DNA from: an uncultured Actinomycetes bacterium | GTDB lineage: Bacteria; Actinomycetota; Thermoleophilia; UBA2241 | DNA: 64,000 bases | Direction of reading: 5' to 3' | NCBI GenBank assembly: GCA_963725665.1 | Contig: CAVRZA010000003.1 | Span: forward strand, 32,001 to 96,000 | Part shown: piece after piece, positions 19,853 through 40,000 of the stretch | Layout of the letters: each line of letters starts with the position of its first letter | How positions within the stretch are numbered: position 1 is the stretch's first letter | Made by a program: the position numbers and the translations under genes | Notes under the pieces: model-generated | Seen by the model: the letters and a program-made list of their open reading frames with translations, nothing else | What the model was told of the DNA's origin: nothing | Databases searched by the model: none

Positions 19853-21595
19853 CTAGCGGCCTCCGCCCCTATCTGATTGCTCGAAGGCAAGGAGCAATCC
19901 CAGGGCGACCCCGTACCGGGGTCCATGCGTCCCGTCGATGTTGGCCGTGCCGACGATGGTCTCCAGGTGCTGTACCGACTCACCCACGATGCGGACCGCC
20001 TCCGCATCCAGTGCGGCACCCCCGGATAGGAGGAGTGTGCTGGGTCTTCCCTTCAGCCACCTCAAGCACCTAACGACGTTGGCTCCGATCACTCGCTGCT
20101 TGATGGCGAGCCGCAACGGTCTCCATTCCTCGGGCGCCAGTCGATCGGAGAAGGGAGTGGGCGTCGCACCCCGCAGGAAGCACAAGCGACCGAGCGCGGC
20201 TGCGGGTAGCGGGGTCTCTACGAAGGACCTGCTTCCGTCCTCATAGTGCACCATGTGAGGCGCCTCGACGCGCAGGGAGACGAACTTCTTCACCGATTCG
20301 CCTACTCTCTTGCGCAGACCCAGCGCCTTCGCTACTGACACCGTCAGGAGCTCTCCGGCGCCCGCGGCCGTGATGCGCTGGTCTCCCCACACGAGATCGA
20401 TAGTGCCTCCGCCCATGTCGCACACGGCCGCGTCCTCCGGGGCGCCCGGCGTGGTCAGGGCTCCGAGGGCAGCAGCCTCTGCTTCAGACGCCATCACGTG
20501 GACCGGGCGTCCCGCCGCTTCCGCCAAGACCCGTTCCGGGCGCGATGACGAAGGGGGCGCTGACACAAGCGCGGCGATCGGCACCTCGGCGAGCTGGATC
20601 GATCCCTCTCTGGGGAGGAACTGCCCTCGTATCGACGGCAAATCGACAGCGAACACGTCGCGGATTCGTTCCTGGACACCCCCGAGCGCGTCGCAGAGAG
20701 GCAAGCCTTTGGGGACGTGGACCCTGCGCACAGAACCGGGCCGCAGAGAATCGACATGCTCCAGCAGGCGATGGGAGAGGGGGAGCCGGCTCACGACTCC
20801 GTCTCCCTCATACTCGAGCCATCCGGTCTCGCTGCTCTCGATGTGGTGCTCGACATCTCGGCACAGGGCGAGAGCAGCGCATCGCGCGTCGGCGAGACCC
20901 AGTGTCACATCGTTGAGCAAACGAGCCTGCGTCGGCGCGAGTCCGAAGGCGGCGACCAGGGCCACGGGATCACCCAGGACCTTCACGCGCGCGCCTGGGC
21001 CGGCCACCTCGACGGCGATCGGTTCGCCGGCCTGCAGGCCGACCACGTCAGCTTCGTCGACGATAGGGATCGTCCGCGGGATGCGATTCGCGATGAGAAC
21101 GGCATCGTCGCCCGCCACGACGGCTGCCACAACCGGCAGCTGCATGGCCAGAGCCTGGGAGATCGTGTCGGCGGCCTCCTCGAAATCGGTCCTGGAGGGC
21201 ACGGAGACGATGAGCGATCCACTCCGCCCAGCGTGGCTTCTGAGATCACGGAGAGGCACATGGAAGCCGGCCGCGAAGCCGATCCCCGCGGGCGTGCCGG
21301 CAGACGGATCATCCAGCCGCCGAAGCAGGGGCGAGCCGCCGGAATGAGAGGGCAGCGAGGCCGAGAGCGTGATGACGGGCTGGAGCGGAGGCAGGAGCAG
21401 AAGCTCGGACCTTCTTCCCATCGCCTGCTCGGCGCGTAGTACAAGGCGCGCGGCATTCCTCACTGAGTCGTCGCTGCCTTTCCCCCCGACGGTCCAGGCG
21501 CGCCGAGCGATCAAGGTCGTGACCGACCCGCGCTCCACTTCGGCGATGAGAACCTCGGTCGTCGTGTTGCCGATGTCAACGCCGGCGACGATCAT
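19853..21595 (-). CDS. pduG: diol/glycerol dehydratase reactivase alpha-like ATPase
   Basis: AGVDIGNTTTE, DDAVLIANR, EAEAAALGALTTPG, DMGGGT, AGAGELLT, GPRYGVALGL. Confidence 0.85.
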   Translation of the reverse strand: MIVAGVDIGNTTTEVLIAEVERGSVTTLIARRAWTVGGKGSDDSVRNAARLVLRAEQAMGRRSELLLLPPLQPVITLSASLPSHSGGSPLLRRLDDPSAGTPAGIGFAAGFHVPLRDLRSHAGRSGSLIVSVPSRTDFEEAADTISQALAMQLPVVAAVVAGDDAVLIANRIPRTIPIVDEADVVGLQAGEPIAVEVAGPGARVKVLGDPVALVAAFGLAPTQARLLNDVTLGLADARCAALALCRDVEHHIESSETGWLEYEGDGVVSRLPLSHRLLEHVDSLRPGSVRRVHVPKGLPLCDALGGVQERIRDVFAVDLPSIRGQFLPREGSIQLAEVPIAALVSAPPSSSRPERVLAEAAGRPVHVMASEAEAAALGALTTPGAPEDAAVCDMGGGTIDLVWGDQRITAAGAGELLTVSVAKALGLRKRVGESVKKFVSLRVEAPHMVHYEDGSRSFVETPLPAAALGRLCFLRGATPTPFSDRLAPEEWRPLRLAIKQRVIGANVVRCLRWLKGRPSTLLLSGGAALDAEAVRIVGESVQHLETIVGTANIDGTHGPRYGVALGLLLAFEQSDRGGGR

Positions 21596-21631
21596 CTCGG
21601 GCTCCCGGTGCGGATCCCAGCGCCCCGCGGC

Positions 21632-22000
21632 TCAGCTCAGCCGGTGCAGTCCACGTCGCCCGTAGACCGCCGAGGCTTCCCTCACGAGCGCCGCGCACAA
21701 CGGTGCGTTCGACGCCTCGAGACGGCGTGCGATGGCCTCTAGCTGCGCGAGCGACGCCCGGCCGGGTCGCAGCGCCTCGTAGATGGCGAGGACCTCTGCG
21801 TCATCGAGAGCCGTGAGCTCAGCGGCTCGTCGCAGGTTCTCGGCCAGCCGCGCGTTGCCGTGTTGTTCCGCGACGAGCGCCTGGTGGCGGAGCGTGTCGG
21901 GGTGGATCCTGAGGTCGTCCGGCGACAGGCTCCCGTGCGCTGCCGAGTCGATGGTGATCTCGGAGAGCGGGCGACCGGATAGAGCGTGAGCGTCAGTCAT
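21632..22000 (-). CDS. pduE: diol dehydratase small (gamma) subunit
   Basis: DLRIHPDTL..QA..AE, LAENLRRAAELT, IYEALRPGRAS; ATGA overlap with the large subunit gene. Confidence 0.9.
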   Translation of the reverse strand: MTDAHALSGRPLSEITIDSAAHGSLSPDDLRIHPDTLRHQALVAEQHGNARLAENLRRAAELTALDDAEVLAIYEALRPGRASLAQLEAIARRLEASNAPLCAALVREASAVYGRRGLHRLS

Positions 22001-24276
22001 TTGACCACCCTCAGATTGACCGGCGCGGCGCCTGGTACGCATTCGTCGCGCTCGATCGCCATCATCGCGACGACTTCGGCGTGGTAGCGCGCCTCGATCG
22101 CTTGCTCCGTGTAGGGATTGCGTATGGGAACGGGCCGCAGGCCCTTCGCGTGCCGGCCGGCGTTGGTGCCCAGGGCTCGGTACATCTCCTTCGTGACGAG
22201 CGGGGCGATCGAGTAGAGCTCGAGGCAGGCGAGAGGAGGAAGGTCACGGCGATGGATGAGAGCCGTGCCTTTCGCCTGAAGGCCGACACCGATCCCCGAG
22301 CCGGCCAGGCGCGCCCCGGTCAAACCGACCATCCCCAGGTCGATCGTCGACCCCACGCGGACGAGGCGCGCGATACATCCCTCTTCTTCAAGGCCGGCCA
22401 GGATCTGCCGCAGGACCTCTCCCACGGGCAGCCCCGACATCGTGATCCACAGCTTCGTGGCCAGCGCCGGAGACACCCCAACGCAGACCTCACGGGGATC
22501 GACCCCCAGCTCCGCCTCGCCCTGTTCGATTAGGCGAACGTGGCCCGCCCAAGTCGCCTGTTTCCTCAGCAGTTCCTCCCTGGACCGTTGCTGACGGATG
22601 CCGGCCATCTCGGTCCGCCGCGCCGCCGTCACCTCGTAGCCCGTCCCAGGCCCCTGGTAGTCGTTGGGGTCCGTGATCTTCGAGAGGACGTTCATCTCTT
22701 CGTCGAAGATGGCCGCCGTCTGCAGGTAGTCGCCGGCGACGCGTGCTCGCCCCATGGCGAGCACGCGTCGCGCCTCCTCCCGGAATCCGGTGCGATCCAG
22801 GGCGCGAACCACGTCGAGGATGCCCAGCTCCTTCTCCCGGATGGCATCCGCGGCCTCCAGCACGATCCCGGGGTCCAGCGGTGGCAGATCTTTCGAGCCT
22901 TCCGCGGCCACGACGGCGGCGACGTGGTCGTCTGCGAAGTCGGCCAGGCCCAAGTCGCGGTAGACGGCCTGCACGGCTTCGGCAGCCCGTTGCCGCACCT
23001 CGCGAAGCCGCGCCTCATCCACCGGTCTTAGGCCGCCCTCGACGCCCCAATCCCTCTGCATGACGAGGTAGTCGTCCAGGTCCTCGCCGTTGAAGTTGGA
23101 CGGGCCGAACATGTTGTCGTAGCGCACGATCGAGCCGAAGCCCGAGAACAGGAAGTCGGATCCGGCTAGGACAAGGGGCACCGTATGGGCCGTTCGCCTC
23201 ACGTCTGATTCGGACACCTGACTGTCGTTCCCCGAACAGGATTCGAGGTCGTGAAGCATCACGAGCAGGTTCTCGGCCAAGAGCTCGCGCATGCCGTCGG
23301 GAACCGAGGCAACCACGCTGGCGCCGTCGATGCCGCCGTTTTGCACGCCCTGGGATCCCATCGCCCGAGCCAGCGCGACGCACCTTGACTCGAGGTAGCA
23401 CATCGACTTGCCTTCGGCGGCGCCCATGAGCACCTCCGCGCCGCCGCCGCTCGTGACCCTCATCTTGAGACCGCGAGAGGCGTACGCAGAGCAAAGGAAG
23501 GCCTTCGACCAGGGTGTGTCGTCACCGTCGACGAACACCTGCTCGGTTCCGTACAGGGAGACGGTCTCGGCATACATGGTGAGGCCGCGGAGGCCAAGTT
23601 CGAGCTCGAGGGCCTCCTCTATGGAGCACTGGGTGAGCGCGCCTGCGGCGCCGACCTGCGACCCGATGAGCACGGCGAGAGCGTTCGAGGGGGCGTCCGC
23701 CAGGACGGGCACCGTCGTCTCGAGCTCCCTGAACCCGAACGCGACCGCCGTTGCGGCGTCGGCTGCCAGAAGGAGAGGGTCATCGAGCCGGTTCGTGACG
23801 TGCGCTTGGATCGATGGTGTGCGTCTGACCCTCATCTTCGCGATCGCCATCTGCAGCTCGACTGGGCGGAGTCGCGCCACGACACGTGCCAGCTTGGCCG
23901 GCGTCGCTCCTCCGGCGAGCCGTGCAACCTCCTCGCGAGGCGTCGAGGGGTCGACGATCAGTCGCGCGAACGCGATGTCGGCAAGGCCGTTCGCCTCGAT
24001 GGCGACCGATGTGTCGATCCCGTGGTCGGCGATGTAGGCATCGACGATGTCGAATCGATCCCTGGGCACGCCGTCCAGGAGCACAACGTGGCCCTCGGCG
24101 TCGATCTCTATAGAAGGATCGGGGTCGTGCCTGCTTGCGAAAGCGACGAGGCCCACGTCGTCATCCTCTTGGGAGAACCCGTCGAGGTTGACCGGTCGCT
24201 TGTCGAGCCCAAGAAGCCGGCCGAGCCTGAAGGCGGTGTCTCCGTCTCCGCTGGCTGTCGCGTGTCCTTTTGCCAA
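21997..24276 (-). CDS. pduC: B12-dependent diol/glycerol dehydratase-like enzyme, large and medium subunits fused
   Basis: RRTPSIQAHVTN, ELETT, YAETVSLYGT, DGDDTPWSKAFL, YDNMF, NDYQGPGTGY; then the beta domain ILAGLEEEG, GSGIGVGLQAKGT, LELYSIAP. Confidence 0.9.
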   Translation of the reverse strand: MAKGHATASGDGDTAFRLGRLLGLDKRPVNLDGFSQEDDDVGLVAFASRHDPDPSIEIDAEGHVVLLDGVPRDRFDIVDAYIADHGIDTSVAIEANGLADIAFARLIVDPSTPREEVARLAGGATPAKLARVVARLRPVELQMAIAKMRVRRTPSIQAHVTNRLDDPLLLAADAATAVAFGFRELETTVPVLADAPSNALAVLIGSQVGAAGALTQCSIEEALELELGLRGLTMYAETVSLYGTEQVFVDGDDTPWSKAFLCSAYASRGLKMRVTSGGGAEVLMGAAEGKSMCYLESRCVALARAMGSQGVQNGGIDGASVVASVPDGMRELLAENLLVMLHDLESCSGNDSQVSESDVRRTAHTVPLVLAGSDFLFSGFGSIVRYDNMFGPSNFNGEDLDDYLVMQRDWGVEGGLRPVDEARLREVRQRAAEAVQAVYRDLGLADFADDHVAAVVAAEGSKDLPPLDPGIVLEAADAIREKELGILDVVRALDRTGFREEARRVLAMGRARVAGDYLQTAAIFDEEMNVLSKITDPNDYQGPGTGYEVTAARRTEMAGIRQQRSREELLRKQATWAGHVRLIEQGEAELGVDPREVCVGVSPALATKLWITMSGLPVGEVLRQILAGLEEEGCIARLVRVGSTIDLGMVGLTGARLAGSGIGVGLQAKGTALIHRRDLPPLACLELYSIAPLVTKEMYRALGTNAGRHAKGLRPVPIRNPYTEQAIEARYHAEVVAMMAIERDECVPGAAPVNLRVVK

Positions 24277-27187: not shown

Positions 27188-27253
27188 CAGGCGCGCGGGC
27201 GGGCGCGGCGGGCGTCTCCCTCAAGGCGCCCGCCGCGCCCGCCCGCGCGCCTG
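27188..27253 (-). terminator. long hairpin closing the partner-switch operon
   Basis: CAGGCGCGCGGGCGGGCGCGGCGGGCG...CGCCCGCCGCGCCCGCCCGCGCGCCTG immediately after the STAS stop. Confidence 0.65.
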
Positions 27254-27257
27254 CGTT

Positions 27258-27587
27258 CTACCCCGCTTTGGCCTGCGGTGCGATGAAGGCTCCCTCGCCG
27301 ACGAGCTCGCGCACCTTCAGCATCGCGAACACGTCTTCGACGGCGGGGGAGAGGTGGCGCGCCCGGAGCTGGATGCCCTGGGCTCGCAGGTCGAGGCAAA
27401 GACGCACGAAGATGCCGGCACCCGAGGAGTCGATGAAGCGGACCCCTGCGAAGTCCAGCACGGCCTGGTCGCTGCCCCGCACGGCGTCGCTTACGACCCA
27501 GCGCAGGGTCTCCGTGCAGTCCAGGTCTACCTCGCCCTCGAGGTAGATGATGGGGGCCACACCTTTGTCAACTCGCGTGTGCAGCAT
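27258..27587 (-). CDS. STAS-domain anti-sigma factor antagonist
   Basis: LEGEVDL, LDFAGVRFIDSSGAG with the phosphoacceptor Ser. Confidence 0.9.
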   Translation of the reverse strand: MLHTRVDKGVAPIIYLEGEVDLDCTETLRWVVSDAVRGSDQAVLDFAGVRFIDSSGAGIFVRLCLDLRAQGIQLRARHLSPAVEDVFAMLKVRELVGEGAFIAPQAKAG

Positions 27588-28371
27588 AGTCAGCCCTCTC
27601 CTTGATCATACGGTCGAGCATGAGCGTCGTCCCGTCGTTCCCGGTATGCAGTGAGACCTCTTCGAGGCTCTCGAGGATGAGCTTGTAACCGTAGCCCATG
27701 GACACCTGGTCGCCGCTGCCTTGCGGAGCGGTCCAGTTCAGGAAGCTGAGCCCCCGGCCGCGGTCCGAGACGATGGCGCGCAGGCGGTCGTCGAGGATGC
27801 GCAGAGCCACCGTGCCGGTGCCGCCGCCGTGGAGGATCATGTTGGTCGTCGCCTCGGAGACGGCGAGGATGAAGCCTTTGCGCGCGGCTTCACTCAGAGA
27901 GACCTCGGCCAGCGCCAGGTCGGCGGCGTTGCGCGTCATGGCCAGTGACGTCGAGTCGGTGACCGCGTGCGCGATCAGCTCGGAGCCGCGACTCCGCTCC
28001 GTGCTGAGCTCTTGCTCGTCGAGGAAGTGCAGCCTGCCCCGCGCGACAGCGGACGCCAGGTCGTTGAGGATGTCCAGCAGGCTGCGGCGGTGGTCGCCGT
28101 GATGGCGCCGCCAGCCGTTGGTGTGGATGCCCATGATCTCGCAGCGGTCGCCGCGGGGGATGAAGCAGAACTCGTCGCCGACGGCGTCGTTGTAGTCGGT
28201 GATGGTGTGGCAGACGAAGCTGCGCAGGTTCATGGCCTCGCGGGCCCGCTCGATCAGGTCCGCCGGTGGCAGCGGCGAGAGGGCGCCGCCGACGACGATG
28301 CGCAGCGTGTCGCTGCCCGCGTCGTAGCGGAAGACTTGCAGCGTCACGGGTGTGCGCTTGGGTCCCATCAT
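27568..28371 (-). CDS. RsbW/SpoIIAB-like anti-sigma Ser kinase with an unknown N-terminal domain
   Basis: LAVSEATTNMILHG (N box), VSDRGRG (G1), MGYGYKLI (G2), GTTL. Confidence 0.85.
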   Translation of the reverse strand: MMGPKRTPVTLQVFRYDAGSDTLRIVVGGALSPLPPADLIERAREAMNLRSFVCHTITDYNDAVGDEFCFIPRGDRCEIMGIHTNGWRRHHGDHRRSLLDILNDLASAVARGRLHFLDEQELSTERSRGSELIAHAVTDSTSLAMTRNAADLALAEVSLSEAARKGFILAVSEATTNMILHGGGTGTVALRILDDRLRAIVSDRGRGLSFLNWTAPQGSGDQVSMGYGYKLILESLEEVSLHTGNDGTTLMLDRMIKERADYAAHAS

Positions 28372-28482
28372 GGTCTCACTCTGTATCGGTCGCTCGTCGC
28401 CGCCGGTTGAGTGCGCGGCGGTGCGGTCGCGAGCGGTCTTCGTCCGGCGCCGCGCCGATCTTGCCTCGACCTCATTGCGGCC

Positions 28483-30042
28483 TCACGTCACCTTGATGAG
28501 CAGCAGGGTCAGGTCGTCCGCCGGGGGCATGCCGCCGCGAAAGTCGGCGACCTCGGTGAGGACAGTCTCGAGGATGGCCTCGGGCGCGTCGGCACGCACG
28601 CGGCGCAGGCACGCGCACAGGCGCTCGACGCCGAAAAGCTCACCGGCGGCGTCGCGCGCCTCCGTCACCCCGTCGGTGTAGAGCGCGACGAGGTCGCCGG
28701 GGCTCAGCCTGAGTGTGTCCTCGGGGAAGTCGAGCCCCGGCCGGACGCCCAGCAGGCTGCCGCGGGCCGCCACTCGGCGCTCACCTTCGTCCCCGAACAC
28801 CAGCAGAGGGTTGTGACCGCCGCCGGCCACCGTCAGGCGTCGCCGTGCGGGATCGTAGAGTGCGTACGTGAGCGTGAGGAACGAGGGCAGCGCCTGGCCC
28901 TCGAGGTCGCGCGCGAGGCCGTCGTTCACCTCTGCCAGCACGCGGCCCGGCGAGCGTCGCGCGCGAGCCGCCTGGTGCAGCAGTGAACGAGCCATGGCCA
29001 TGATGAGGGCCGCCGCGAGCCCCTTGCCCATCACGTCGCCGCAGGCGATCGCCAGGTGGCCGTCGTCGAAGTCGAGGAAGTCGTAGTAGTCGCCGCCCAT
29101 CTCCGTCATGAACTCGATCCGGGCGGCGAACTCGAGGCCCTCGACCACAGGGGACTCCTTGGGCAGCAGGTCGAGCTGGATCTGTCGGGCTCGCTCGATC
29201 TCGGCGGCCACTTTGCGCTGCGTCTCGGCGAGCCGCTCGTGGAGCCGCGCGGTGGCTACGAGCTCGTCCTTGAACGACGCCAACGCCGCGGTGTGGGACT
29301 CGCGATCGCGGGCGCGGCTGGCGTAGATCTCGTAGGAGTAGTAGATGAGGAACAGCGGTGGCAGGGCGAGCAGTAGACCGGGAAGGCCGAGCGCGAGGTA
29401 GAGGCCGGCCACGAGCAGGCTGAGCGACGCACCCGTGAGGTAGCTCGGCAGCCCCCATTGGTAGTTGCGCTGCCACACGCGCAGGGCGCTCTCGCCAGTC
29501 GCCAGCGCGATGACGCCGGCAAGCACGACCGTGTTGGCCAGGAAGTCGACGCCAGTCGCGGCGAACGCGGGTAGCACGCGGTCGGTGAAGGTGGCCGTCA
29601 GGGGCACGAGGGCGACGTACAGCGCACCGCCGAGGAACGTCGAGAGCACGTGGTTGGCCACGTTGAAGACGATCTTCTGGGGGTCGTGCGTGAGCCAGGC
29701 CGTGGCGAGCCCCGAGGCGATGGCCACAAGGAGGGCGGGGAAGAGACCGAAGACGATCAGGGCGGCGAGGATGAGGACGAACGACAGCGTCACCACGCCG
29801 ACGCCCGGCAGGCGGACCTCGCGCAGATCGGCGAAGGCGGCGAGGGCGATGAAGGCGATGAGGGCCGGCGTGACCTCTCCGCTGTGGCCGGCCAGGGCCA
29901 GGCCGACCACGGCCGCGGCGACAACGGCGGCTACGTACAGTGAGACGGCCGCGCGTTGCCGCGCGGCCGTCTCACTGCCGGGCTGCGCTGGGGCGCCGAC
30001 TACTGACCGTCGATCATCGTCGTCCAGGAGTACTTGGTCCAT
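28483..30042 (-). CDS. membrane-anchored SpoIIE/PP2C phosphatase (start uncertain)
   Basis: About 7 TM helices, coiled coil ARQIQLDLLP, GGDYYD, GDVMGKG, YTDGVTE, DDLT; the nearest in-frame ATG upstream of the first TM helix is at 30042, inside the upstream gene. Confidence 0.88.
   Translation of the reverse strand: MDQVLLDDDDRRSVVGAPAQPGSETAARQRAAVSLYVAAVVAAAVVGLALAGHSGEVTPALIAFIALAAFADLREVRLPGVGVVTLSFVLILAALIVFGLFPALLVAIASGLATAWLTHDPQKIVFNVANHVLSTFLGGALYVALVPLTATFTDRVLPAFAATGVDFLANTVVLAGVIALATGESALRVWQRNYQWGLPSYLTGASLSLLVAGLYLALGLPGLLLALPPLFLIYYSYEIYASRARDRESHTAALASFKDELVATARLHERLAETQRKVAAEIERARQIQLDLLPKESPVVEGLEFAARIEFMTEMGGDYYDFLDFDDGHLAIACGDVMGKGLAAALIMAMARSLLHQAARARRSPGRVLAEVNDGLARDLEGQALPSFLTLTYALYDPARRRLTVAGGGHNPLLVFGDEGERRVAARGSLLGVRPGLDFPEDTLRLSPGDLVALYTDGVTEARDAAGELFGVERLCACLRRVRADAPEAILETVLTEVADFRGGMPPADDLTLLLIKVT
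29938..29977. other. perfect 18-bp hairpin at the protease/phosphatase junction
   Basis: CAGTGAGACGGCCGCGCG-GCAA-CGCGCGGCCGTCTCACTG on the minus strand (GNRA loop). Confidence 0.8.
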
Positions 30043-31628
30043 GAGTACTTCGTCCACGAGTACTTGGTCCACGAATACTTCGTCCAGGAATACTTCGTCC
30101 ATGAGTACTTGGTCCATGAGTACTTGGTCCACGAATACTTCGTCCACGAGTACTTCGCCCAGTTCACCAGCACGTCGGGAGGCAGGATGGTCGAGCCATC
30201 GCCAAGGTCGGCCGAGAGCGCCGGCCCGTCAGCTCGCATGTGGTTGGCGAGCACCGACGGCGTGTCGACCGCGCCGGCCCCCTGCACCGCCGACGACACA
30301 CCGGCCAGCGGACGCGCGCTCGCCATCAGGCGCACCTTCACGTCGTCGGGCGTGAGTCTTGGGTCGCGCTCGAGCATGAGGGCGGCGACTCCGGCCACGA
30401 CCGGCGCGGCTGTGCTCGTCCCGGAGAGCTTGAAGTAGGCAGGCTTCTCCCAAGCGGGAGCGGTGGGAGCGTAGAGGGACACCGGGATGCGGTTGTCGGG
30501 CCAGGTGCGGTCGACGAAGCTGCCCTTCACACGCAGCGAGATCAGACGGTTGCCGGGTGCGACGATGTCGGGCTTCGCGAACTCGTCGAACAGCGTCGGT
30601 CCGATCGAGCTGTAGCCGCACACGGCGTCGTCGTCGAGCGTCGCCGTCTGCTTCGTATCGAGCGCGCCGACGGTGATCGCCAACGGGTCGTTGCCGGGAG
30701 AGAGGATGCCGCCGTTGCCGAACTCACCTTCGTTGCCGGCGGCGCAGATGACGACGATGCCCGCTCTCCACGCGGCCTCCACGGCCTTTGCCAGGGGATC
30801 GTCCGAGACCGGCCCGGGAATGTCCCCGCCGGCCGAGATGTTCAGCACCCTGATGTGGTACTCGTTCTTGTGGCGGATGGCCCAGAGGATGCCCCTGATC
30901 ACGTCGGAAGCTCTACCCTGCCCGTACCTGTCGAGGACCTTGATGGCGACGATGTTGGCGCCGGGAGCGACGCCGCGGAACTGCTGCGTCGCGTAGCCGC
31001 CCTGATCGACCGGCAGCGAGGCGGTGCCGTCGCCTGCGATCAAACCGGCGACGAACGTGCCGTGCCCGGCGTCGTCGTACGGATGTCTCTTGCCCTTGAC
31101 GAAGTCGACCCAGCCGACGAGGCGCGAGCCATGAAGGTCGGCGGTCTCGTCGATGCCGCTGTCGATCACGGCGACCGTGACCCCCCTGCCCGTGGGTCCG
31201 CCGTCCCAGGGGGCGGGCAGCCGACCCAGTCCTATCGTCAGATTGGTCACGTCCATGGTGCTCGCGTAGTCGGCGGCGAACACGGTGGGGTCGGACGTGA
31301 TCGCAGTGACGTAGGGAAGCTCCGCCAGGGAATCGACCTGCTCCGCCGTGAGGGGTGCAGCGGCGGCCTTCACCACGTCGAGGGGCTCGGCGTCCGGAGT
31401 GGACGAAAGCGCCCCCATCACGTCGTCGACGTGTCCCGGCGCGTAGACGATGACGGGGACGGCCTCGCCGGGCGAGGCGGCCAGCGCCGCCGTGACTGCG
31501 GGGTCGACCTTCGTCGCCGTGTCAGGCCTCGCCGTCGGCGAGCCCCACTTGGCCGCCCACGCCGGCGAGGCCAGCGCGAGCAGCAGAAGGAGTGTGACCG
31601 CGACCGCGGCCTGGTAGCGCCTTCTCAT
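30000..31628 (-). CDS. secreted S8 subtilisin-like serine protease with C-terminal (KYSWT)x9 tail
   Basis: Sec signal MRRRYQ...ASPAWA; VAVIDSG, HGTFVAG, AAGNEG, SGTSTAAP catalytic motifs; GGAGG RBS. Confidence 0.93.
   Translation of the reverse strand: MRRRYQAAVAVTLLLLLALASPAWAAKWGSPTARPDTATKVDPAVTAALAASPGEAVPVIVYAPGHVDDVMGALSSTPDAEPLDVVKAAAAPLTAEQVDSLAELPYVTAITSDPTVFAADYASTMDVTNLTIGLGRLPAPWDGGPTGRGVTVAVIDSGIDETADLHGSRLVGWVDFVKGKRHPYDDAGHGTFVAGLIAGDGTASLPVDQGGYATQQFRGVAPGANIVAIKVLDRYGQGRASDVIRGILWAIRHKNEYHIRVLNISAGGDIPGPVSDDPLAKAVEAAWRAGIVVICAAGNEGEFGNGGILSPGNDPLAITVGALDTKQTATLDDDAVCGYSSIGPTLFDEFAKPDIVAPGNRLISLRVKGSFVDRTWPDNRIPVSLYAPTAPAWEKPAYFKLSGTSTAAPVVAGVAALMLERDPRLTPDDVKVRLMASARPLAGVSSAVQGAGAVDTPSVLANHMRADGPALSADLGDGSTILPPDVLVNWAKYSWTKYSWTKYSWTKYSWTKYSWTKYSWTKYSWTKYSWTKYSWTTMIDGQ
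30021..30155 (-). repeat. nine 15-bp coding repeats encoding KYSWT
   Basis: Units start every 15 bp from 30021 to 30141; all differences are at third codon positions. Confidence 0.97.
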
Positions 31629-31741
31629 GGTCCGTCCCTCCACACCCTGCTCCGTTGGCTTCGCCGCTCTCGCCGAACGAGCGGGCTGGTCCTGTCGCGA
31701 AGGGGCGCCCGTGCCGGAAGGCCGTGAGGAGGGTCGGGTGG

Positions 31742-31820
31742 TTCGGCGGCCGAGCTATCTTGCCGTCGGGCAAGACCTCTAGCTTTGCGTCCCTGCCTCA
31801 CAGCAGGTTTGCCCTTTCGT
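31742..31820 (-). promoter_or_regulatory. c-di-GMP-I (GEMM) riboswitch
   Basis: Minus strand GAAAGGGCAAACCTGCT-GTGA-GGCAGGGACGCAAAGCTAGAGGTC...GATAGCTCGGCCGCCGAA matches the GGCAAAC...GACGCAAAGC...GATAGC...CCGA consensus. Confidence 0.88.
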
Positions 31821-32161
31821 TGGGAGAAGTATCGACTGCGCGGCGCGACAAGATTAGACGAACGTTCTACATGTGTAGCCGGTGCGGCGACGTATCCAGC
31901 GCAAGAGGCGTCCGGAGGGCCGACGCCCTGTCAAGGGGCCAAGAACATGGGATTCAGCTACAGGAAACGTACTCTACGCAGGCTTTACACTGAATGGAGT
32001 ATGCCAAGGTGTACTACCCTTCGGAAGCCTTGTTTGGGCGATGGTAAGATAGCCCGGTCAACAGGGGCCAGCGGCAGGAGGATCGGCGGTGACCCTCAGC
32101 AGCCGTGTTGCGCTGGGGTGACGGTCCGGCGGGGTCGGGAGCTACGAGGGAAAGGAGCGCC

Positions 32162-33517
32162 ATGAGTCGGACGGACGGCCTCTACACGGCGGTGCAGAGG
32201 CGCCTCATCACCGAGATCCTCAAACTGGCGACGAGCGACAACAAGAAGAACATCGTGCGCGCCTTCGAGCTGGCCGAGAGGATCACCCCCGACAACCACA
32301 AGTACGAGATGCGCTTCGTCAGGGAGAAGGTCGAGACCGACCACCCCGCCCTCAACATCGCGCGCCACGTCATCAACCTGACGCCCAAGTGCCGCGACGG
32401 CTTCATCAACGCCTTCGTCTTCAACTGTCTTCTTCGCGGTTCGCAGAAGCGTCAGGACTTCAACAAGCGCACCGGCATCCCGACGCCGTTCGTGGTGCTC
32501 ATGAGCCCGACGATGCGCTGCAACCTCACCTGCGAGGGCTGCTACGCCGCCGAGTACTCGCCCGACAGCGACATGACCACCGAGCTCATGCAGAGTATCG
32601 TCGAGCAGGCCAACGACATGGGCGTCTACCTGTTCACGATCCTCGGCGGCGAGCCCTTCGTGCGTGAGGACCTGCTCGACTTCTGCGCCGCCAACCCCGA
32701 CGCCTACTTCCAGATCTATACCAACGGCACGCTCCTCGACGACGAGACGATCGCGCGTATGGCCGACGTCGGTAACGTGGCGCCCATGCTGAGCATCGAG
32801 GGCGACGAGGAGATGACCGACGAGCGCCGCGGGCACGGTGTGTACCGGGGCCTCATGGAGGCCATGAACAAGCTGCACGACGCCGGCATCCTCTTCGGCT
32901 ACTCGGCCACGGTGACCAAGAAGAACTGGTCGATGCTGGTCAGCGACGAGTTCGTCGATCCGCTCGTGGCCAAAGGCGCCTCGATCTCGTGGCACTTCCT
33001 CTACATGCCGGTGGGCCGCGACCCCGACACGACCCTCATGCTGACCCCGTCTGAGCGCAACGAGTTCCGTCTCGGCATCGACCGCATCCGCTCGACCAAG
33101 GCGATGTTCCCCATCGACTTCTGGGGCGACGCGCCGTGGGTCAAGGGCTGCATCGCCGGCAAGCACTACATCCACATCAACAACGAAGGCTGGGTCGAGC
33201 CCTGCATCTTCTGTCACTTCGCCACGCACAACGTCAAGGAGTCGACTCTGGCGGAGGCCTTCGGGGCGCCCTTCTTCCAGGAGATCCGCAGGCGCCAGCC
33301 GTTCAACCACAACCTGCTCATGCCGTGCATGCTCATCGACAACCCGACGATCTCGCGCGAGATCGTCGAGGTGACGGGGGCTCGTCCCACGCACGACGGC
33401 GCCGAGGTGATGCTCACCGAGCTGCGCAAGGAGCTCGACGAGTACGCGGCCGAGGTCGAGCGCGTCTACGACCCGATCTGGTCGTGCATGTCCGGCAAGA
33501 AGCCTGAAGAAGACTGA
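32162..33517 (+). CDS. radical SAM/SPASM domain protein
   Basis: CNLTCEGC, GGEP, TNG, and SPASM CIAG...VEPCIF...PCMLID; AAAGGAG RBS. Confidence 0.92.
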   Translation: MSRTDGLYTAVQRRLITEILKLATSDNKKNIVRAFELAERITPDNHKYEMRFVREKVETDHPALNIARHVINLTPKCRDGFINAFVFNCLLRGSQKRQDFNKRTGIPTPFVVLMSPTMRCNLTCEGCYAAEYSPDSDMTTELMQSIVEQANDMGVYLFTILGGEPFVREDLLDFCAANPDAYFQIYTNGTLLDDETIARMADVGNVAPMLSIEGDEEMTDERRGHGVYRGLMEAMNKLHDAGILFGYSATVTKKNWSMLVSDEFVDPLVAKGASISWHFLYMPVGRDPDTTLMLTPSERNEFRLGIDRIRSTKAMFPIDFWGDAPWVKGCIAGKHYIHINNEGWVEPCIFCHFATHNVKESTLAEAFGAPFFQEIRRRQPFNHNLLMPCMLIDNPTISREIVEVTGARPTHDGAEVMLTELRKELDEYAAEVERVYDPIWSCMSGKKPEED

Positions 33518-34382: not shown

Positions 34383-36920
34383 GTGAGCATGGACCCGAAC
34401 GAAGGCATGCGCGGCGGCGGTCTCAAGTGCGTTCCCCGAGCGGTCGCTCTCTCCACGCGGCACCCCAGACGGCCTCACAGGAAGCGCGCGGGGCGGCTCG
34501 CCCTCGTGACGTCGCTGGTCGCGGCCGCCGCGTTCTGCGCGGTGTGGTCCGCACCGCGCGTCAGCGCGTCGGCCTCCTCGTGGCTCGCCACTCCCACAAC
34601 TACGGCGCGTCTGGTCGCCGTGCCGCTGCCCGCCGCGGTAAGCGGCGCGAGCGGCGCGCTCCGCCTTGGCGCCGACGGCGGCGCCGCTCGCGCCGCCTCC
34701 CCGCGTGCGATCGACGCCGGTCTGCGCTTCAACATGCTCGGCGTGCTGCTGAAGAGCAGTCGTCCCTACGACCCAGATCTCGACGTGCGCGTGAGGACGA
34801 GCCTGGACGGCGTCACCTGGAGCGATTGGATGCGCCTCCGGTTCGTGAGGAGCGAGGGCACACCGGGAAGCGCCTTCGACCGCAACGACACCTGCTCCGA
34901 ACCGTTGTGGGTCGGTGAGGCCCGCTACCTGCAGTACACGGTCGGGCTGACCTCGGGCGCTACCGCGGTCGACGTGTCGAACGTGCGCTTCTCGTTCATC
35001 AACACGCTCGGTGACGCCGGTGCGGGCGACGCGCTCGTGAGCACGCTGAAGCGCAGCCTGTCGTTCGTCGCCGGCATCGGTCATGTGACGCCGGCGCTCT
35101 CCCTGGCCGCTCGTCCGCCGATCGTGACACGGGCCCAGTGGGGCGCCGATGAGAGCCTGCGCTCCGGCAGCCCCAGCTACGCCGCGCTACGCATGGTGTT
35201 CATCCACCACACGGCCGGCGGCAACAGCTACTCGCGGTCAGAGGCTCCGGCAGTGGTGCGCGGCGTCTACTACTACCACACGCGCGTGCACGGCTGGTCG
35301 GACATCGGCTACAACTTCCTCGTCGACCGCTACGGCACCATCTACGAAGGACGCTACGGAGGCATGACGCGCGGAGTCGTGGGTGCGCAGGTTCTCGGCT
35401 TCAACACGCACAGCGCCGGCGTCTCGGTGATGGGCACGTTCGATCAGGCGCCGCCACCGGGTGCGGCCGTCTACGCGCTCGAGAAGTTGATCGCCTGGCG
35501 GCTCGACGTGGCCCACGTGAACCCGCTCGGCCAGGCACGCATGACCTGCTCGACGAGCGATCGGTACGCCGCGGGCAAGACCGTCACCTTCCCGGTCATC
35601 GCCGCCCACCGCCAGGCCAACTACACGAGCTGCCCGGGGAACGCCTTCAACGCCGTTCTACCGGAGATCCGCGCCGCGGTGGCGCAGCGGGGTCAGCCGA
35701 AGATCTACGCTCCCTCCTCGTCGGCCACGGCCCTCAGCCCCGACGGTGACGGTGTCGGCGACATCGTCACGCTGACGGCGGTGCTGTCCCAGACGGCGGA
35801 CTGGACGATCGACATCGAGGGCACGGGAGGGGCCGTGGTGCGCCAGTTCTCCGGTCGGGGCAAGGCCATCGAGGCGTCATGGGACGGACGCGACGGGGAT
35901 GGAGCACCGGTCGCCGACGGTCCCTACGACATAGTCATGACCGGCTCGAACGCCCACGGCGTGACTAGGTCGGCGGTGGTGAGGATCATCGTCGACACGG
36001 TGCCGCCGACGGTCAGCGGGGTGGGCGCGACACTGGCCGTGAGCCCCAACGGCGACGGTATCGGCGACGTGAGGGCCGTCGCTTATGCGGTGAACGAAGC
36101 GGGGCGTGTCCGGGTACGGGTCTACGACAAGGATGACGTCCTGGTGCGCACTGTTCTTGCGGCGCTGTGGGTATCGCCGGGCTCTCACTCGGTGACGTGG
36201 GACGGCAAGGTCTCCTCTCCATCGGGCCTCGTGCCCGCGCCCAGCGGAAGCTACACGGTGCGCGTCAGGGAGGTCGACGCCGCCGGCAACGCCGGCAGCG
36301 GCAGCGGGCCGGCCAAGGTGAATCTGACCCTCGGATTCCCCAAGGCGGCGCCGCGCTACTTCTCGCCCAATGGCGACGGTGTTCGCGATACCAGCCTGCT
36401 CGGCTTCAAGCTTGCCCTGGCCGCATCGGTCAAGGTCGTCGTCAAGGACGCCTCCGGGGTCGTGCGCAGCTTCTCTCTGGGCGCTCTGCAGCCGGGCGCC
36501 GCCGGCGCTACCTGGGACGGCAACACCGATGCCGGCAGGGCTCCCGGCGGCGGCTACACGTTCACCGTCACGGCCACCAACTCCCTGGGCGCCATCACGG
36601 TGTCGGGCCCCATCTCCCTCGACCGCTACGTCCCCCGGTCGAGCGTGCCGGCCGACTTCTCGATCGCCCGCGGCAGCAGGATCGGCTACGTCTACTCGGT
36701 GAAGGACCCGTACGCGAAGGACGTGTACGTGCACGTCGAGGTACGCAGCGGCAAGGGCGTCCTTCTCGCGAACCTCATCCCCGGCTGGGTGATGACGGGC
36801 GTGCGGCACAAGATCTCGTATCGGCCGCCGGGCCGCGGCACGTACGTCTTCACGCTCTACGCCCGGGACCGCGCCGGCAACGTGGCCGCGCCGGCAACGA
36901 CTACCGTCAAGGTGCGCTAG
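34383..36920 (+). CDS. N-acetylmuramoyl-L-alanine amidase (Amidase_2) with FlgD-Ig-like repeats
   Basis: TRAQWGADE, IHHTAG, WSDIGYNFLVD, HRQ...TSCPG; three SPxGDG...WDG repeats. Confidence 0.88.
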   Translation: MSMDPNEGMRGGGLKCVPRAVALSTRHPRRPHRKRAGRLALVTSLVAAAAFCAVWSAPRVSASASSWLATPTTTARLVAVPLPAAVSGASGALRLGADGGAARAASPRAIDAGLRFNMLGVLLKSSRPYDPDLDVRVRTSLDGVTWSDWMRLRFVRSEGTPGSAFDRNDTCSEPLWVGEARYLQYTVGLTSGATAVDVSNVRFSFINTLGDAGAGDALVSTLKRSLSFVAGIGHVTPALSLAARPPIVTRAQWGADESLRSGSPSYAALRMVFIHHTAGGNSYSRSEAPAVVRGVYYYHTRVHGWSDIGYNFLVDRYGTIYEGRYGGMTRGVVGAQVLGFNTHSAGVSVMGTFDQAPPPGAAVYALEKLIAWRLDVAHVNPLGQARMTCSTSDRYAAGKTVTFPVIAAHRQANYTSCPGNAFNAVLPEIRAAVAQRGQPKIYAPSSSATALSPDGDGVGDIVTLTAVLSQTADWTIDIEGTGGAVVRQFSGRGKAIEASWDGRDGDGAPVADGPYDIVMTGSNAHGVTRSAVVRIIVDTVPPTVSGVGATLAVSPNGDGIGDVRAVAYAVNEAGRVRVRVYDKDDVLVRTVLAALWVSPGSHSVTWDGKVSSPSGLVPAPSGSYTVRVREVDAAGNAGSGSGPAKVNLTLGFPKAAPRYFSPNGDGVRDTSLLGFKLALAASVKVVVKDASGVVRSFSLGALQPGAAGATWDGNTDAGRAPGGGYTFTVTATNSLGAITVSGPISLDRYVPRSSVPADFSIARGSRIGYVYSVKDPYAKDVYVHVEVRSGKGVLLANLIPGWVMTGVRHKISYRPPGRGTYVFTLYARDRAGNVAAPATTTVKVR

Positions 36921-37029: not shown

Positions 37030-40000
37030 ATGGCGAAGAGCTTCAAGACGCGACGCGGCGCGGTTGCCGTCGATGAGTGGCTGACGGTCACGCAGGCGGC
37101 GGACCTGCTCGGCGTCGCCGCCCACACTCTGCGTGACTGGACGGCCAAGGGCGTGGTCGAGGCGAGCCGCACGGCCGGGGGCCATCGTCGCTACCGCAAG
37201 GCCGACCTCGAGCGCTTCCGTGCCGCGCGCGCCGAGGCCGACTCGCTCGATGACGTCTTCCACCGGCTGAACGAGCTCAGCACCCTGGCCGGCGTCTCGC
37301 AGGCGGTGTTCTCGGCCCTGGAGCTCGAGGAGCTGCTGCCTCTCGTCTGCCAGAAGCTGGTCGAGACCATGGGTTGCACCGGGGCGGTGATCTCCGACTT
37401 CGACGCGGAGGCCGGGGACGTGGTGACCGCTTGGGAGCACGCGACCGGCGACGCCACGTGGCGGCCGGGGACCCGGTACGCGCTGCGCGACTATCCGGCG
37501 ACGAGACGGGTCGTCGAGCGTCAGGGCTCCTACGTCGCCAACCTCAACGATCCCGCGGTCGACCCTGCCGAGCGTGACGTGCTCGTCGCGGACGGCAATC
37601 AGAGCGCGCTCGTCCTGCCGCTGGTGTACAAGGGCGAGACGATCGGCATCGTCGAGTGTTTCGACCGCGCGCGCGAGCGCAGCTACTCGCAGGGCGAGCT
37701 GGCGCTCGCGCGCGCCATCTGCGACCGCATCGCCGTGGCCGTCTACAACTCGCGCCTCTTCGATCGCCTGCGGCGGCAGAACGACGATCTCGAGCTGGTG
37801 CTGGACGCGGTCAAGGCGATCGGCTCGAGCCGCGATCTGCAAGAAGCGCTCGAGACGATCGCCCGGCGCCTGACCGAGGCGATGGACGTGGCCTGGTGCG
37901 ACATCTACGACTACGATCCGGCACGCCAGGATCTTACGGTCGTCGCCTACTACCAGGTACCCTCAGTGCCTCCATCACCCGGCTGGCTGGGGACACGCTT
38001 CACGCCCGAGGAGTGGTCCGATCTGAGGCGGGCCATCGAGCAGCACGAGACCACGCTCTTGCAGGCGAGCGATCCGACGCTGCCTGAGCCTATGCGGGCG
38101 GCGCTGGAAGCATGGAGCGAGAAGTCGACGATGACCGTCCCCCTCCTGTACGAGGGCGAGCTCGTCGGCGTGCTCGACATCGCGGAGTCGCGCTGGGAGA
38201 GGGTCTTCAGCGAGAACGACGTGCGTCTGGTGCAAGCCATCGCCGCGCAGGCGACCTCGGTGGTGCACAACATGCGGCTGTACGACCAGACGCGCCGACG
38301 TAACCGCGAGCTGCAGCTCCTTCTGGACACCGGTGAAGTCATCGCCTCGTCGATGAATCTCCCTGATGCGCTGGGCAAGGTGACCGAGTGGCTGACTCAT
38401 GCCCTCGACGTGGCGTGGGCGGACATCTACGAGTACGACCCGGGCAGCGACGAGCTGAGGGTCCTGGCCTTCTACCAGATCGAAGGCGTGCCCTCCTCCG
38501 AGGGTTGGCTGGACACGAGCATCCCGAGCGACCTCCTGAGCGAATGGCACCGCAGCATCCACGAGCGTTGCGCGGTCACCGTCTACGCAGAGGATCCCCG
38601 CCTGCCGGCGCGAGATCTGGCCGAGATGGAGAAGTGGGGGGAGCGCGCGACGCTGGTCGTACCCCTCATCTACCGTGAGGAGGTCATCGGCCTGCTCGAC
38701 GTCGCCGAGTCTCGCTTTCAGCGTCGTTTCGGCGAGGAGGAGGCGCGGCTCGTCTTGGCGATCGCCAACCAGCTCGGCTTGGCCGTCCACAATCTGAGGC
38801 TCTTCGAGGCGACGCGCCGTCGCAGCGAGGAGCTCGCCGCCGCGCTGCGTATCACCGAGACCGTCACCTCGAGCAGCGATGTCGACACGGTACTGCACAC
38901 CGTCGTGAGCACGCTGCGCGAGTCCCTCAATCTATCGTGGTGCGAGATCTACGACTTCGATCCCGCCTCCGGCATCCTTAGCCTCGCGGCGCACTCGTAC
39001 CTGGAGCCACTCGACCTCGGAGACTGGGACGGCGTCTATTCGATCGACGAGGCCCCCACGCTGGCCGGCGCGGTCGCCGAGAAGCGGCCCCTCGTGGCCT
39101 ATGTCGACGATCCCGCGCTGCCCCCCGACACGCGCGCTGACATGCAGCGCTGGGGCGACAAGGCTTCGCTCTACGTGCCCATGGTCTACGGCGGGGAAGT
39201 GGTCGGCGTCGTCTACGGCGCCGAGGTCCGAGGCCTGCGGCGCTTCAGCGCCGACGACATACGGCTGGCGACGCTCATGGCGGCGCAGGCGGCCGCAGTC
39301 ATCGAGACGGCCCGGGGGCGAGCGCGCGAGCTCGCCGATCGCGAGCAGCTCGCACGCTTCAACCGCCGTCTGAACAGCCTCGTCGAGTTCTCCTCCGAGA
39401 TGCGCGGCCTCGTCGAGGTCGACGACCTGGTGGCCTTGCTCGGGCGTGTCGTCACTGAGGCGCTCGAGCTGCGGCAGTGGGCGCTCTACCTGCACGACGC
39501 CGAGAGTGACAGCTTCAGGGTGAGCGGTGCGTTGGGCGTAGACCGCGCGATGAGCGACCACTACAAGGGGCTCGTCGTCCCGGCAGCCGCTCTGAGGGGA
39601 CTGATCGCCGACGCCACACCGATCTCGTCGTCGTTCTTCGTCGATCATCGCGTCCATACCTGGAGCGATGAGGAGAACGCCTTCTTCAAGGCGGTCGATT
39701 TCGGCAGCGGCATCGACGGGGAGTGGCACACTGAGGACACTCTCTTCGTCCCCATGGTCAGCGAGAAAGGCCAGCTTATCGGCTACCTCGAGGCGTACGA
39801 TCCCGTCGACCGGCAGCTCCCCAGCGAGGAGCTGGTGCGGCACCTCGAGGTGTTCGCCGGCAAGGCCGCGAGCACGCTGGAGCTGCTGCGGCTCTACGGT
39901 CAGCTCGAGGAGCAGGCCACGACCGACGGTCTCACCGGCCTCTACAACCACCGTCACCTCCTTCAGCGTGTCGAGGAGGAGGTCGCCAAAGCGCGGCGCT

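Follow-up and report, generated by a model that had tools for sequence, protein, structure and literature searches.

A c-di-GMP-riboswitch-led operon of a Thermoleophilia family pairs a tryptophan-tailed subtilase with a MASE9-type membrane phosphatase

What links a predicted secreted protease that ends in nine copies of the pentapeptide KYSWT to the membrane phosphatase encoded by the next gene? The question is raised by a 64,000-nucleotide (nt) stretch of DNA from an uncultured Actinomycetes bacterium of the class Thermoleophilia (contig CAVRZA010000003.1 of assembly GCA_963725665.1; hereafter the window, in which position 1 is the first letter). The unit in question is an operon of one Thermoleophilia family that lies on the minus strand of the window, is led by a cyclic di-GMP (c-di-GMP) riboswitch, and codes for the tailed S8 subtilase, the PP2C-type phosphatase, a kinase and a STAS protein. 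We found that S8 subtilases with tryptophan (Trp) repeat tails recur in distant bacteria beside related MASE9-type membrane domains, a recurrence in gene order that points to an undescribed signalling module. All parts named in the original prediction made on this DNA, from the riboswitch, tailed S8 protease and membrane PP2C to the kinase, STAS protein and hairpin, were recovered on the minus strand by profile scans and inspection of the sequence:

31742..31823 (-): c-di-GMP-I class riboswitch aptamer (Rfam RF01051)
31629..31741 (-): leader and expression platform, with an anti-Shine-Dalgarno pairing in the predicted fold
30000..31628 (-): predicted secreted S8 subtilase, a pre-pro-enzyme of 542 amino acids (aa) from the ATG (Peptidase_S8)
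30021..30155 (-): (KYSWT)x9 tail array, then TMIDGQ and the stop codon (Tandem Repeats Finder, TRF, and translation)
29942..29973 (-): conserved RNA hairpin (14-bp stem, 4-nt loop) within early PP2C codons (covariation in relatives)
28483..30042 (-): MASE9-PP2C membrane phosphatase, start uncertain (SpoIIE and MASE9 profiles)
27568..28371 (-): RsbW/RsbA-like serine kinase of the anti-sigma type, with about 130 extra N-terminal aa (HATPase_c_2)
27258..27587 (-): STAS protein of the anti-sigma-antagonist type with a DSSG motif (STAS profile)
27190..27251 (-): long GC-rich hairpin at the operon end, a putative terminator (direct sequence reading; mirrored GC repeats in TRF)

Trp-tailed subtilases and their MASE9-type partners

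The protease matched the Pfam family Peptidase_S8 with 162 bits. Its open reading frame (ORF) spans 30000-31643, with a likely ATG at 31628-31626, 7 nt after a GGAGGG motif. By its sequence the enzyme is catalytically intact: the catalytic residues D157, H190 and S406 and the oxyanion residue N300 are invariant among 118 aligned sequences (residue numbers are those of the 543-aa translation of 30000-31631, which begins one codon ahead of the Met). A signal peptide read by eye (MRRRYQ...ASPAWA/AK) suggests that the protease is exported. The nearest solved relative was Tk-SP (PDB 3AFG/9UES, E 1e-50), and an AlphaFold2 model built from the 118-sequence alignment comprised a subtilase with its propeptide at a mean predicted local distance difference test (pLDDT) score of 86.1; an earlier model from 22 sequences was too poor for use (mean pLDDT 52).

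TRF described the tail array with a period of 15, 9.5 copies and 87% matches. Differences between the KYSWT units are abundant at synonymous positions (pS 0.667) and rare at non-synonymous ones (pN 0.018). Nine units that are identical in protein yet diverged synonymously indicate an old array held by selection, not a product of chance or fresh slippage. Averaged over 62 loci, synonymous differences between units likewise outweigh non-synonymous ones (pS 0.46, pN 0.19), as expected of a tail under selection. It is the only array with Trp at every fifth position in the 3.7-Mb genome, whose sole other S8-like ORF has none. No known wall-binding family matched the tail in a Pfam scan; the Pfam pentapeptide-repeat profile (PF00805) did not match the protease at E<=0.01, and the AlphaFold2 model contained no beta-helix.

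A homologue search, in which 8000 candidates were scored, gave 2543 protein matches, the best 120 of which were used for tail analysis. K[YF]xW[TS] arrays were present in all 120 best homologues listed. Of these, 119 have between 6 and 20 units, the remaining sequence breaking off within the array after 2 units, and the last Trp stands exactly 7 residues from the C-terminus, again in 119 of the 120. Many proteins repeat a uniform unit that differs between species (KYSWT, KYAWT, KFAWT, KYAWS or KYRWT), and many homologues carry mixed units in a fixed order with a 15-residue super-period, such as (KFRWT)4-GVSWT-(KFRWT)2-NVAWT-(KFRWT)2-EYQWA-KFRWT. Ordered mixed units and fixed C-terminal spacing favour a module that is kept whole over a string of equal products. 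The C-terminal ...IEGQ may be conserved in part because its codons also supply the next gene with its ribosome-binding site and start (GAR-GGN-CAG-TGA). The Trp tail is an uncatalogued repeat domain carried by a large set of subtilases.

The phosphatase matched SpoIIE/PP2C (PF07228) with 179.6 bits over profile positions 1-191 of 192, and residues D295, D313, D434 and D486/D487, which we take to be metal ligands, are invariant in 30 orthologues. Residues 6-213 contain about eight hydrophobic segments. MASE9 (PF20972) matched the window protein marginally (24.3-24.6 bits for a cut-off of 24.3) and was found in 29 of the 30 orthologues at E<=0.01 (best 6e-8); judged by these profile matches, the membrane domain is of the MASE9 type. 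The accessible text of a preprint describes MASE9 as a promiscuous sensor with eight membrane segments, short loops, and conserved polar and aromatic membrane residues, whose ligand is not known and probably binds within the membrane (bioRxiv 10.1101/2021.11.05.467447). The 554-aa ORF originally listed for PP2C did not stand, as its start at 30147 belongs to an alternative frame of the repeats and the conserved protein starts near 29973.

Tails of this kind extend well beyond the family. Among 1.84 billion representatives, phmmer found 352 matches to the 75-residue tail, and 17 of the 24 mid-sized matches that were scanned are S8 proteins with Trp-x4 arrays (WTGxS, WDGIS, WADVS, WSKIS and others), while one is an Amidase_3. 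A C-terminal WTEES array is carried by the Amidase_3 cell-wall hydrolase P0254 (439 aa), so the Trp-x4 tail is not wholly restricted to S8 proteins.

With a tailed S8 protein of Ilumatobacter as query, 83 of 401 genomes of the phylum Actinomycetota matched, a tally that includes genomes flagged as unpublished, and the best 30 loci were examined. Trp-x4 tails were present in all 30 of these best relatives. The next gene on the same strand codes for a polytopic membrane domain joined to GAF and GGDEF in 11 loci (L098, L102 and L107 among the GGDEF loci come from genomes flagged as unpublished), for such a domain joined to GAF and HisKA in 9, for a polytopic membrane domain and GAF that run off the end of the locus in 5, and for membrane segments only in 1. 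In Vicinamibacterales (Acidobacteriota) the tails are built from Trp units of six or ten residues. Here locus L067 codes for MASE9-HD_5-GAF-GGDEF 5' of the S8 gene, and loci L069 and L070 code for MASE9-PAS-kinase-REC in the same place, with a stand-alone MASE9 gene downstream; all of these MASE9 matches are above the Pfam cut-off. Trp-tailed S8 genes are often tandem paralogues (L070 7019-11776, L096, L105, G038:C21, G179:C3 and G114:C39), and in L070 the stand-alone MASE9 gene lies between two of them.

The membrane domains of these sensors are homologous. A hidden Markov model (HMM) of 32 PP2C N-termini matched 10 of 24 foreign sensors at E<1e-3, and hhalign aligned the PP2C and foreign sensor membrane domains over 229 columns (probability 97.4%, E 1.5e-11). 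Within the window's own genome the same HMM found a single other ORF among 11,478, a canonical MASE9-HD-GYP gene with no S8 gene beside it (G000:C2:65836-67272; L112 7837-9273). This gene adjoins genes for a major facilitator superfamily transporter and a biotin ligase.

The linkage of repeat-tailed S8 genes to a membrane sensor domain, on which the original prediction hinged, was thus found in three lineages. That prediction had also proposed to look for the same membrane domain on different outputs, and these proved to be PP2C in the Thermoleophilia family, GAF joined to GGDEF or to a histidine kinase in other Actinomycetota, and HD-GYP-GAF-GGDEF, PAS-kinase or none in Vicinamibacterales. 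By homology, then, the pairing holds for tailed S8 proteins and a subgroup of MASE9-type domains, the output domain being exchanged. A conserved pairing with swapped outputs argues that protease and sensor are very probably a functional pair.

Downstream of the phosphatase, the kinase matched HATPase_c_2 (34.5 bits against 27.4) and remained far from the NCBIfam equivalogs RsbW (21.8 against 145), SpoIIAB (25.4 against 135) and RsbA_anti_sig (50.9 against a cut-off of 210). The STAS protein matched Pfam STAS with 47 bits and fell just under the cut-off of TIGR00377 (48.9 against 53.45); the Ser of its FIDSSGAG motif is presumably the phosphorylatable one. The SiaA and mycosin models of NCBIfam scored far below their cut-offs on the operon proteins. 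Pfam matches without NCBIfam equivalog matches indicate that these parts belong to superfamilies and not to named systems. No sigma gene lies in or beside the unit, whose neighbours are a superoxide dismutase gene, a nucleotidyltransferase-like gene, a radical SAM gene and an amidase gene. Domain matches and neighbouring genes together uphold the view of PP2C, kinase and STAS as a partner switch without an adjacent sigma factor.

RNA elements and conservation of the operon

Species genomes provided 76 loci for comparison, 69 of the window type (the family loci) and 7 from Acidobacteriota. RF01051 scored the window aptamer at 65.9 bits for a gathering score of 35 and covered the full length of the model (positions 1-87 of 87), while the variant model RF03167 scored it at 57.4 bits, under its gathering score of 59. 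Of 15 short loci, 14 have an aptamer 5' of the S8 gene that Rfam recognised. One cut-off copy was RF01051 and 13 were the RF03167 'GGC' variant, c-di-GMP-I-GGC, at 60-75 bits (loci L002, L012, L013, L015, L024, L042-L044, L049, L050, L056, L059 and L060); unlike most relatives, the window aptamer is thus better matched by canonical c-di-GMP-I. The aptamer core GACGCAAAGC is identical in all 14 aligned aptamers, for which reason we gave up the suspicion that the window copy departs from the others at an A in contact with the ligand. A covariance model of the family aptamer, built from 14 aligned relatives that match it by construction, detected an aptamer 5' of the S8 gene at 62 of the 69 family loci and in the window; a search with this model found none at the 7 Acidobacteriota loci with a Trp-tailed S8 gene.

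Between aptamer and gene, the stretch CCCUCC (31728-31733) is complementary to the Shine-Dalgarno motif GGAGGG (31636-31641), and the two are paired in both the minimum free energy and the centroid folds. The leader fold overall was no better than shuffles (z-score -0.47), and a crude pattern found a C/U-rich segment 3' of the aptamer in 32 of 61 loci. From these features the riboswitch is predicted to bind its ligand and to turn expression either on or off.

A further RNA structure, the hairpin GAGACGGCCGnGCG/CGCnCGGCCGTCTC (29942-29973), lies between the S8 stop codon and the first membrane helix of PP2C and occurs in 54 loci and in the window. The search pattern demands six central pairs, whose invariance across loci was therefore selected by the search itself. 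Cells of the hairpin are paired at 95.8%, compared to 26-48% with the partner slid; one pair occurs as UA 21, CG 17, AU 9 and GC 3 times, and two outer pairs also vary on both sides. Nine loci with room miss the pattern, four of them being near matches by eye and five having another sequence. The hairpin is translated: it lies in an open frame, within the first ~22 codons of PP2C (peptide ETAxRxRxAVSLYV), which runs on into a conserved S-L-Y-V that varies at third codon positions. The two residues encoded by the covarying bases swap V/T, E/S, A/A and G/P, and only RNA pairing makes sense of these swaps. The extended stem occurs once in the genome, and a repeated extragenic element was rejected, the genome having only ten shorter GC palindromes in unrelated contexts.

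In 42 of 55 loci the S8 gene ends in a TGA that shares bases with an in-frame GTG or ATG (GTGA/ATGA) some 33 nt ahead of the hairpin, a classic arrangement for translational coupling as far as sequence can tell. The covarying in-frame hairpin and the S8/PP2C start/stop overlap are newly recognised here. Together they may set the ratio of sensor to protease, and would then provide a compact example of ratio setting for two coupled gene products.

The Trp tail is present in 64 of the 69 family loci; of the other five, three are cut by the contig end, one has a single unit (L022, about 2300-2344, ahead of the conserved end) and one is broken. At L046 (about 10400-10480) the S8 frame stops after two units and repeat-like DNA continues, which may be a frameshift or an assembly error. 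Where there was room, family loci had the kinase in 57 of 57 cases and the STAS protein in 55 of 55. In a sample across the class, 20 of 25 genomes from the window's own GTDB family had an orthologue and 0 of 125 from its other families did, which confines it to the one family.

Within the family, two further genes accompany the operon. The radical SAM/SPASM gene, whose product is extended N-terminally by ~125 aa (32105-33517, +), is divergent beside the riboswitch and adjoins in 56 of 61 family loci with room, and a gene for an exported Amidase_2 with FlgD-Ig domains (34383-36920, +) is a neighbour in 53 of 56. Neither was found beside the tailed S8 genes of other lineages, and the general module does not include the radical SAM gene. 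Its product reached the cut-off of no NCBIfam family, the best matches being heme-related (88 bits against cut-offs of 500). Further along, 5 kb from the riboswitch, a gene at 37030-40473 (+) codes for a 1147-aa protein with a MerR helix-turn-helix, four GAF domains and GGDEF, a possible local source of c-di-GMP. The genes at 19853-24276 (-), for a diol/glycerol dehydratase with fused large and medium subunits and for its reactivase, are unrelated to the operon.

What the tail may do

We favour a reading in which the tail stays on the enzyme and couples the protease to the sensor, and as a whole we would give it an even chance. The exported S8 subtilase would be the extracytoplasmic partner of a MASE9-type sensor that exposes almost no loops. 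The Trp tail, most likely retained, would be the coupling piece that docks the protease at the membrane or at the sensor, which would then read the state of the protease through the docked tail. PP2C would dephosphorylate the STAS protein; once unphosphorylated, this protein would capture the RsbW-like kinase and so release a target whose gene lies elsewhere. The amount of sensor per protease would be set by the hairpin together with, in most relatives, the start/stop overlap. A retained docking tail is favoured because relatives keep their mixed units in order and their C-terminal spacing constant. When residues 469-543 (the tail) were co-folded with residues 1-285 of the phosphatase (the MASE9 domain), the score was 0.00 in a run without controls, which speaks neither for nor against binding.

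Several observations weigh against this reading. The tail has no confident fold, with a helix at residues 486-500 and pLDDT <50 over residues 501-543, and thus gives no structural backing for a docking domain; the exact identity of its units in this genome is at least as well explained by released peptides. The window itself departs from the arrangement seen in most relatives, since its S8 stop is TAG without a start/stop overlap, and the nearest in-frame ATG of PP2C (30042) falls within the last repeat, leaving the start codon unclear. The 60-odd family loci are close kin of one GTDB family and count as roughly one observation. The pairing has exceptions as well: two of the 30 Actinomycetota loci have a second S8 gene next and two have no sensor within 1.5 kb, and at L068, L071 and L072 of Vicinamibacterales the tailed S8 gene has no MASE9 neighbour and is followed by a GNAT gene. 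Finally, 11 SpoIIE-type, 9 STAS and 10 HATPase_c_2 matches above cut-off in the genome make cross-talk possible, and the output cannot be assigned.

The original prediction took the tail as a polyprotein of signal peptides: the protease would cut itself after aromatic residues, and the Trp pentapeptides would enter the membrane and bind MASE9 in an autocrine or quorum-like circuit under c-di-GMP. Nine identical units at the pS and pN of this array are what equal products need, uniformity within a protein together with differences between species resembles pherotypes, and the invariant catalytic residues, the tail without confident fold and the S8/MASE9 linkage all agree with release. There is precedent in Phr pentapeptides and alpha-factor repeats, which are cut by subtilisin-type proteases and by Kex2, respectively. 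A MASE9 ligand that probably binds within the membrane, as the accessible text of the preprint has it (bioRxiv 10.1101/2021.11.05.467447), also agrees with release. However, many relatives have mixed units in conserved order, with the 15-residue super-period and the fixed C-terminal spacing; the mean differences between units over 62 loci (pS 0.46, pN 0.19) indicate that equal units are not the rule, other lineages have hexa- and decapeptide units, and no cleavage sites, exporter genes or importer genes are conserved beside the unit. Release of signal peptides therefore appears unlikely. The conserved S8-sensor linkage of the earlier interpretation stood, whereas the tail as a set of equal peptide products was not supported so far: ordered mixed units and a last Trp fixed in nearly all listed homologues look more like a fixed module. 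A wider form of the idea, in which the tail is a self-encoded array of ligands for the MASE-type intramembrane sensor, either trimmed to membrane-partitioning Trp peptides or presented directly, seems to us similarly doubtful. If true, it would reveal a widespread undescribed protease-to-sensor system of soil Actinomycetota and Acidobacteriota that feeds, according to lineage, c-di-GMP enzymes, histidine kinases or, as here, a PP2C partner switch.

Alternatively, the tail could be a general anchor in the envelope or matrix, as already considered in the original prediction, with Lys and aromatic residues contacting wall polymers or exopolysaccharide; the sensor would merely be co-regulated, or would sense products of the protease or changes of the envelope without touching the tail. 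A tail rich in Trp, Tyr and Lys, the array on the Amidase_3 hydrolase, which shows that the repeat is not strictly tied to S8, the conserved FlgD-Ig amidase neighbour and the three Vicinamibacterales loci with a tail and no MASE9 neighbour suit such an anchor, and control by c-di-GMP would suit a matrix lifestyle. It leaves unexplained the constant MASE9 neighbour with swapped outputs and the predicted translational coupling of most loci, and the tail matches no known wall-binding family; we regard an anchor as rather improbable. The divergent radical SAM/SPASM enzyme might instead cross-link Trp and Lys of the tail before export, in the manner of ribosomally synthesised and post-translationally modified peptides such as darobactin and streptide, given its place beside the riboswitch and a W-T-K motif that resembles known cross-linked motifs. 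The five family genomes without the gene beside S8 all keep the tail (three had no orthologue found and two have it elsewhere, completeness of these genomes not being known), no copy of the gene lies within 1.5 kb of 30 tailed S8 genes from other classes or within 10 kb of the 7 Acidobacteriota loci, and the clusters that resemble it most come from Bacillota and Thermodesulfobacteriota. With no peptide-maturase family reached at cut-off and the tail persisting without a radical SAM neighbour, we rejected the enzyme as a tail maturase or member of the module, a role that is now very improbable. Release of the units as cationic Trp-rich antimicrobial peptides against competitors would agree with a secreted protease and with the likeness of KFRWT and KYKWT to short Arg/Lys-Trp antimicrobial peptides, but units are neutral or acidic in many lineages (WSGTS, WDGIS, WADVS, NIVWGE), no immunity or export genes are conserved and the sensor linkage is left unexplained, so that we give this explanation scarcely any credence.

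Returning to a retained tail coupled to the sensor, the conserved genetic partner offers a concrete hypothesis for how a MASE-type sensor, a common kind of membrane domain, is addressed and a tractable pair for tests (tail peptide or tailed protease with MASE9-PP2C). The module would link extracellular proteolysis with c-di-GMP and phospho-switch signalling in abundant, poorly studied soil bacteria. The literature searched, which leaves subscription journals mostly outside, contained no description of a Trp-repeat subtilase tail or of an S8-MASE9 pairing, and nothing that joins a c-di-GMP riboswitch with a subtilisin.

Comparison with known systems

The protease shares an N-terminal propeptide and a C-terminal extension with Tk-SP of Thermococcus kodakarensis and AprX-type subtilases, but the extension of Tk-SP is a folded beta-jelly-roll, in contrast to the Trp-every-fifth array without a confident fold described here. 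Pentapeptide-repeat proteins (PF00805; Qnr, MfpA, Rfr) have the same five-residue period, and in our own reading T-S-W-S-G units fit [STAV][DN][LF][STR][G] if Trp is central; here, however, there is no Pfam match, no predicted beta-helix, and a bulky Tyr or Phe at i-2. Short peptides processed by S8-family proteases are known from yeast, whose alpha-factor repeats are cut by Kex2, and from Bacillus, whose Phr pentapeptides control Rap phosphatases. Unlike in those systems, the repeats lie within the protease itself with no spacer or processing sites evident, and the presumed receptor is a membrane PP2C instead of a cytoplasmic Rap.

A sensor with minimal loops that takes its input from a separately encoded envelope protein is also found in LiaF-LiaS, YycHI-WalK and BceAB-BceS, although the accessory protein is here a predicted secreted protease with a repeat tail, and outputs include PP2C, GGDEF, HD-GYP and kinases. 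The partner switches RsbU/RsbV/RsbW-sigmaB and SpoIIE/SpoIIAA/SpoIIAB-sigmaF of Bacillus likewise co-encode a PP2C phosphatase, a HATPase_c_2 kinase and a DSSG STAS protein, and SpoIIE has an N-terminal polytopic membrane domain. The operon differs from them in having no adjacent sigma gene, a kinase and a STAS protein under the equivalog cut-offs, a MASE9 membrane domain, and a protease and riboswitch at its head. The same membrane sensor domain is tied to c-di-GMP signalling in TM1467 of Thermotoga maritima and HdgA of Streptomyces venezuelae, for which the accessible text of the preprint lists HD-GYP and GGDEF-EAL outputs and mentions neither a PP2C output nor a Trp-tailed protease neighbour (bioRxiv 10.1101/2021.11.05.467447). 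Compared to those MASE9 enzymes, the operon would receive c-di-GMP as an input, through its riboswitch.

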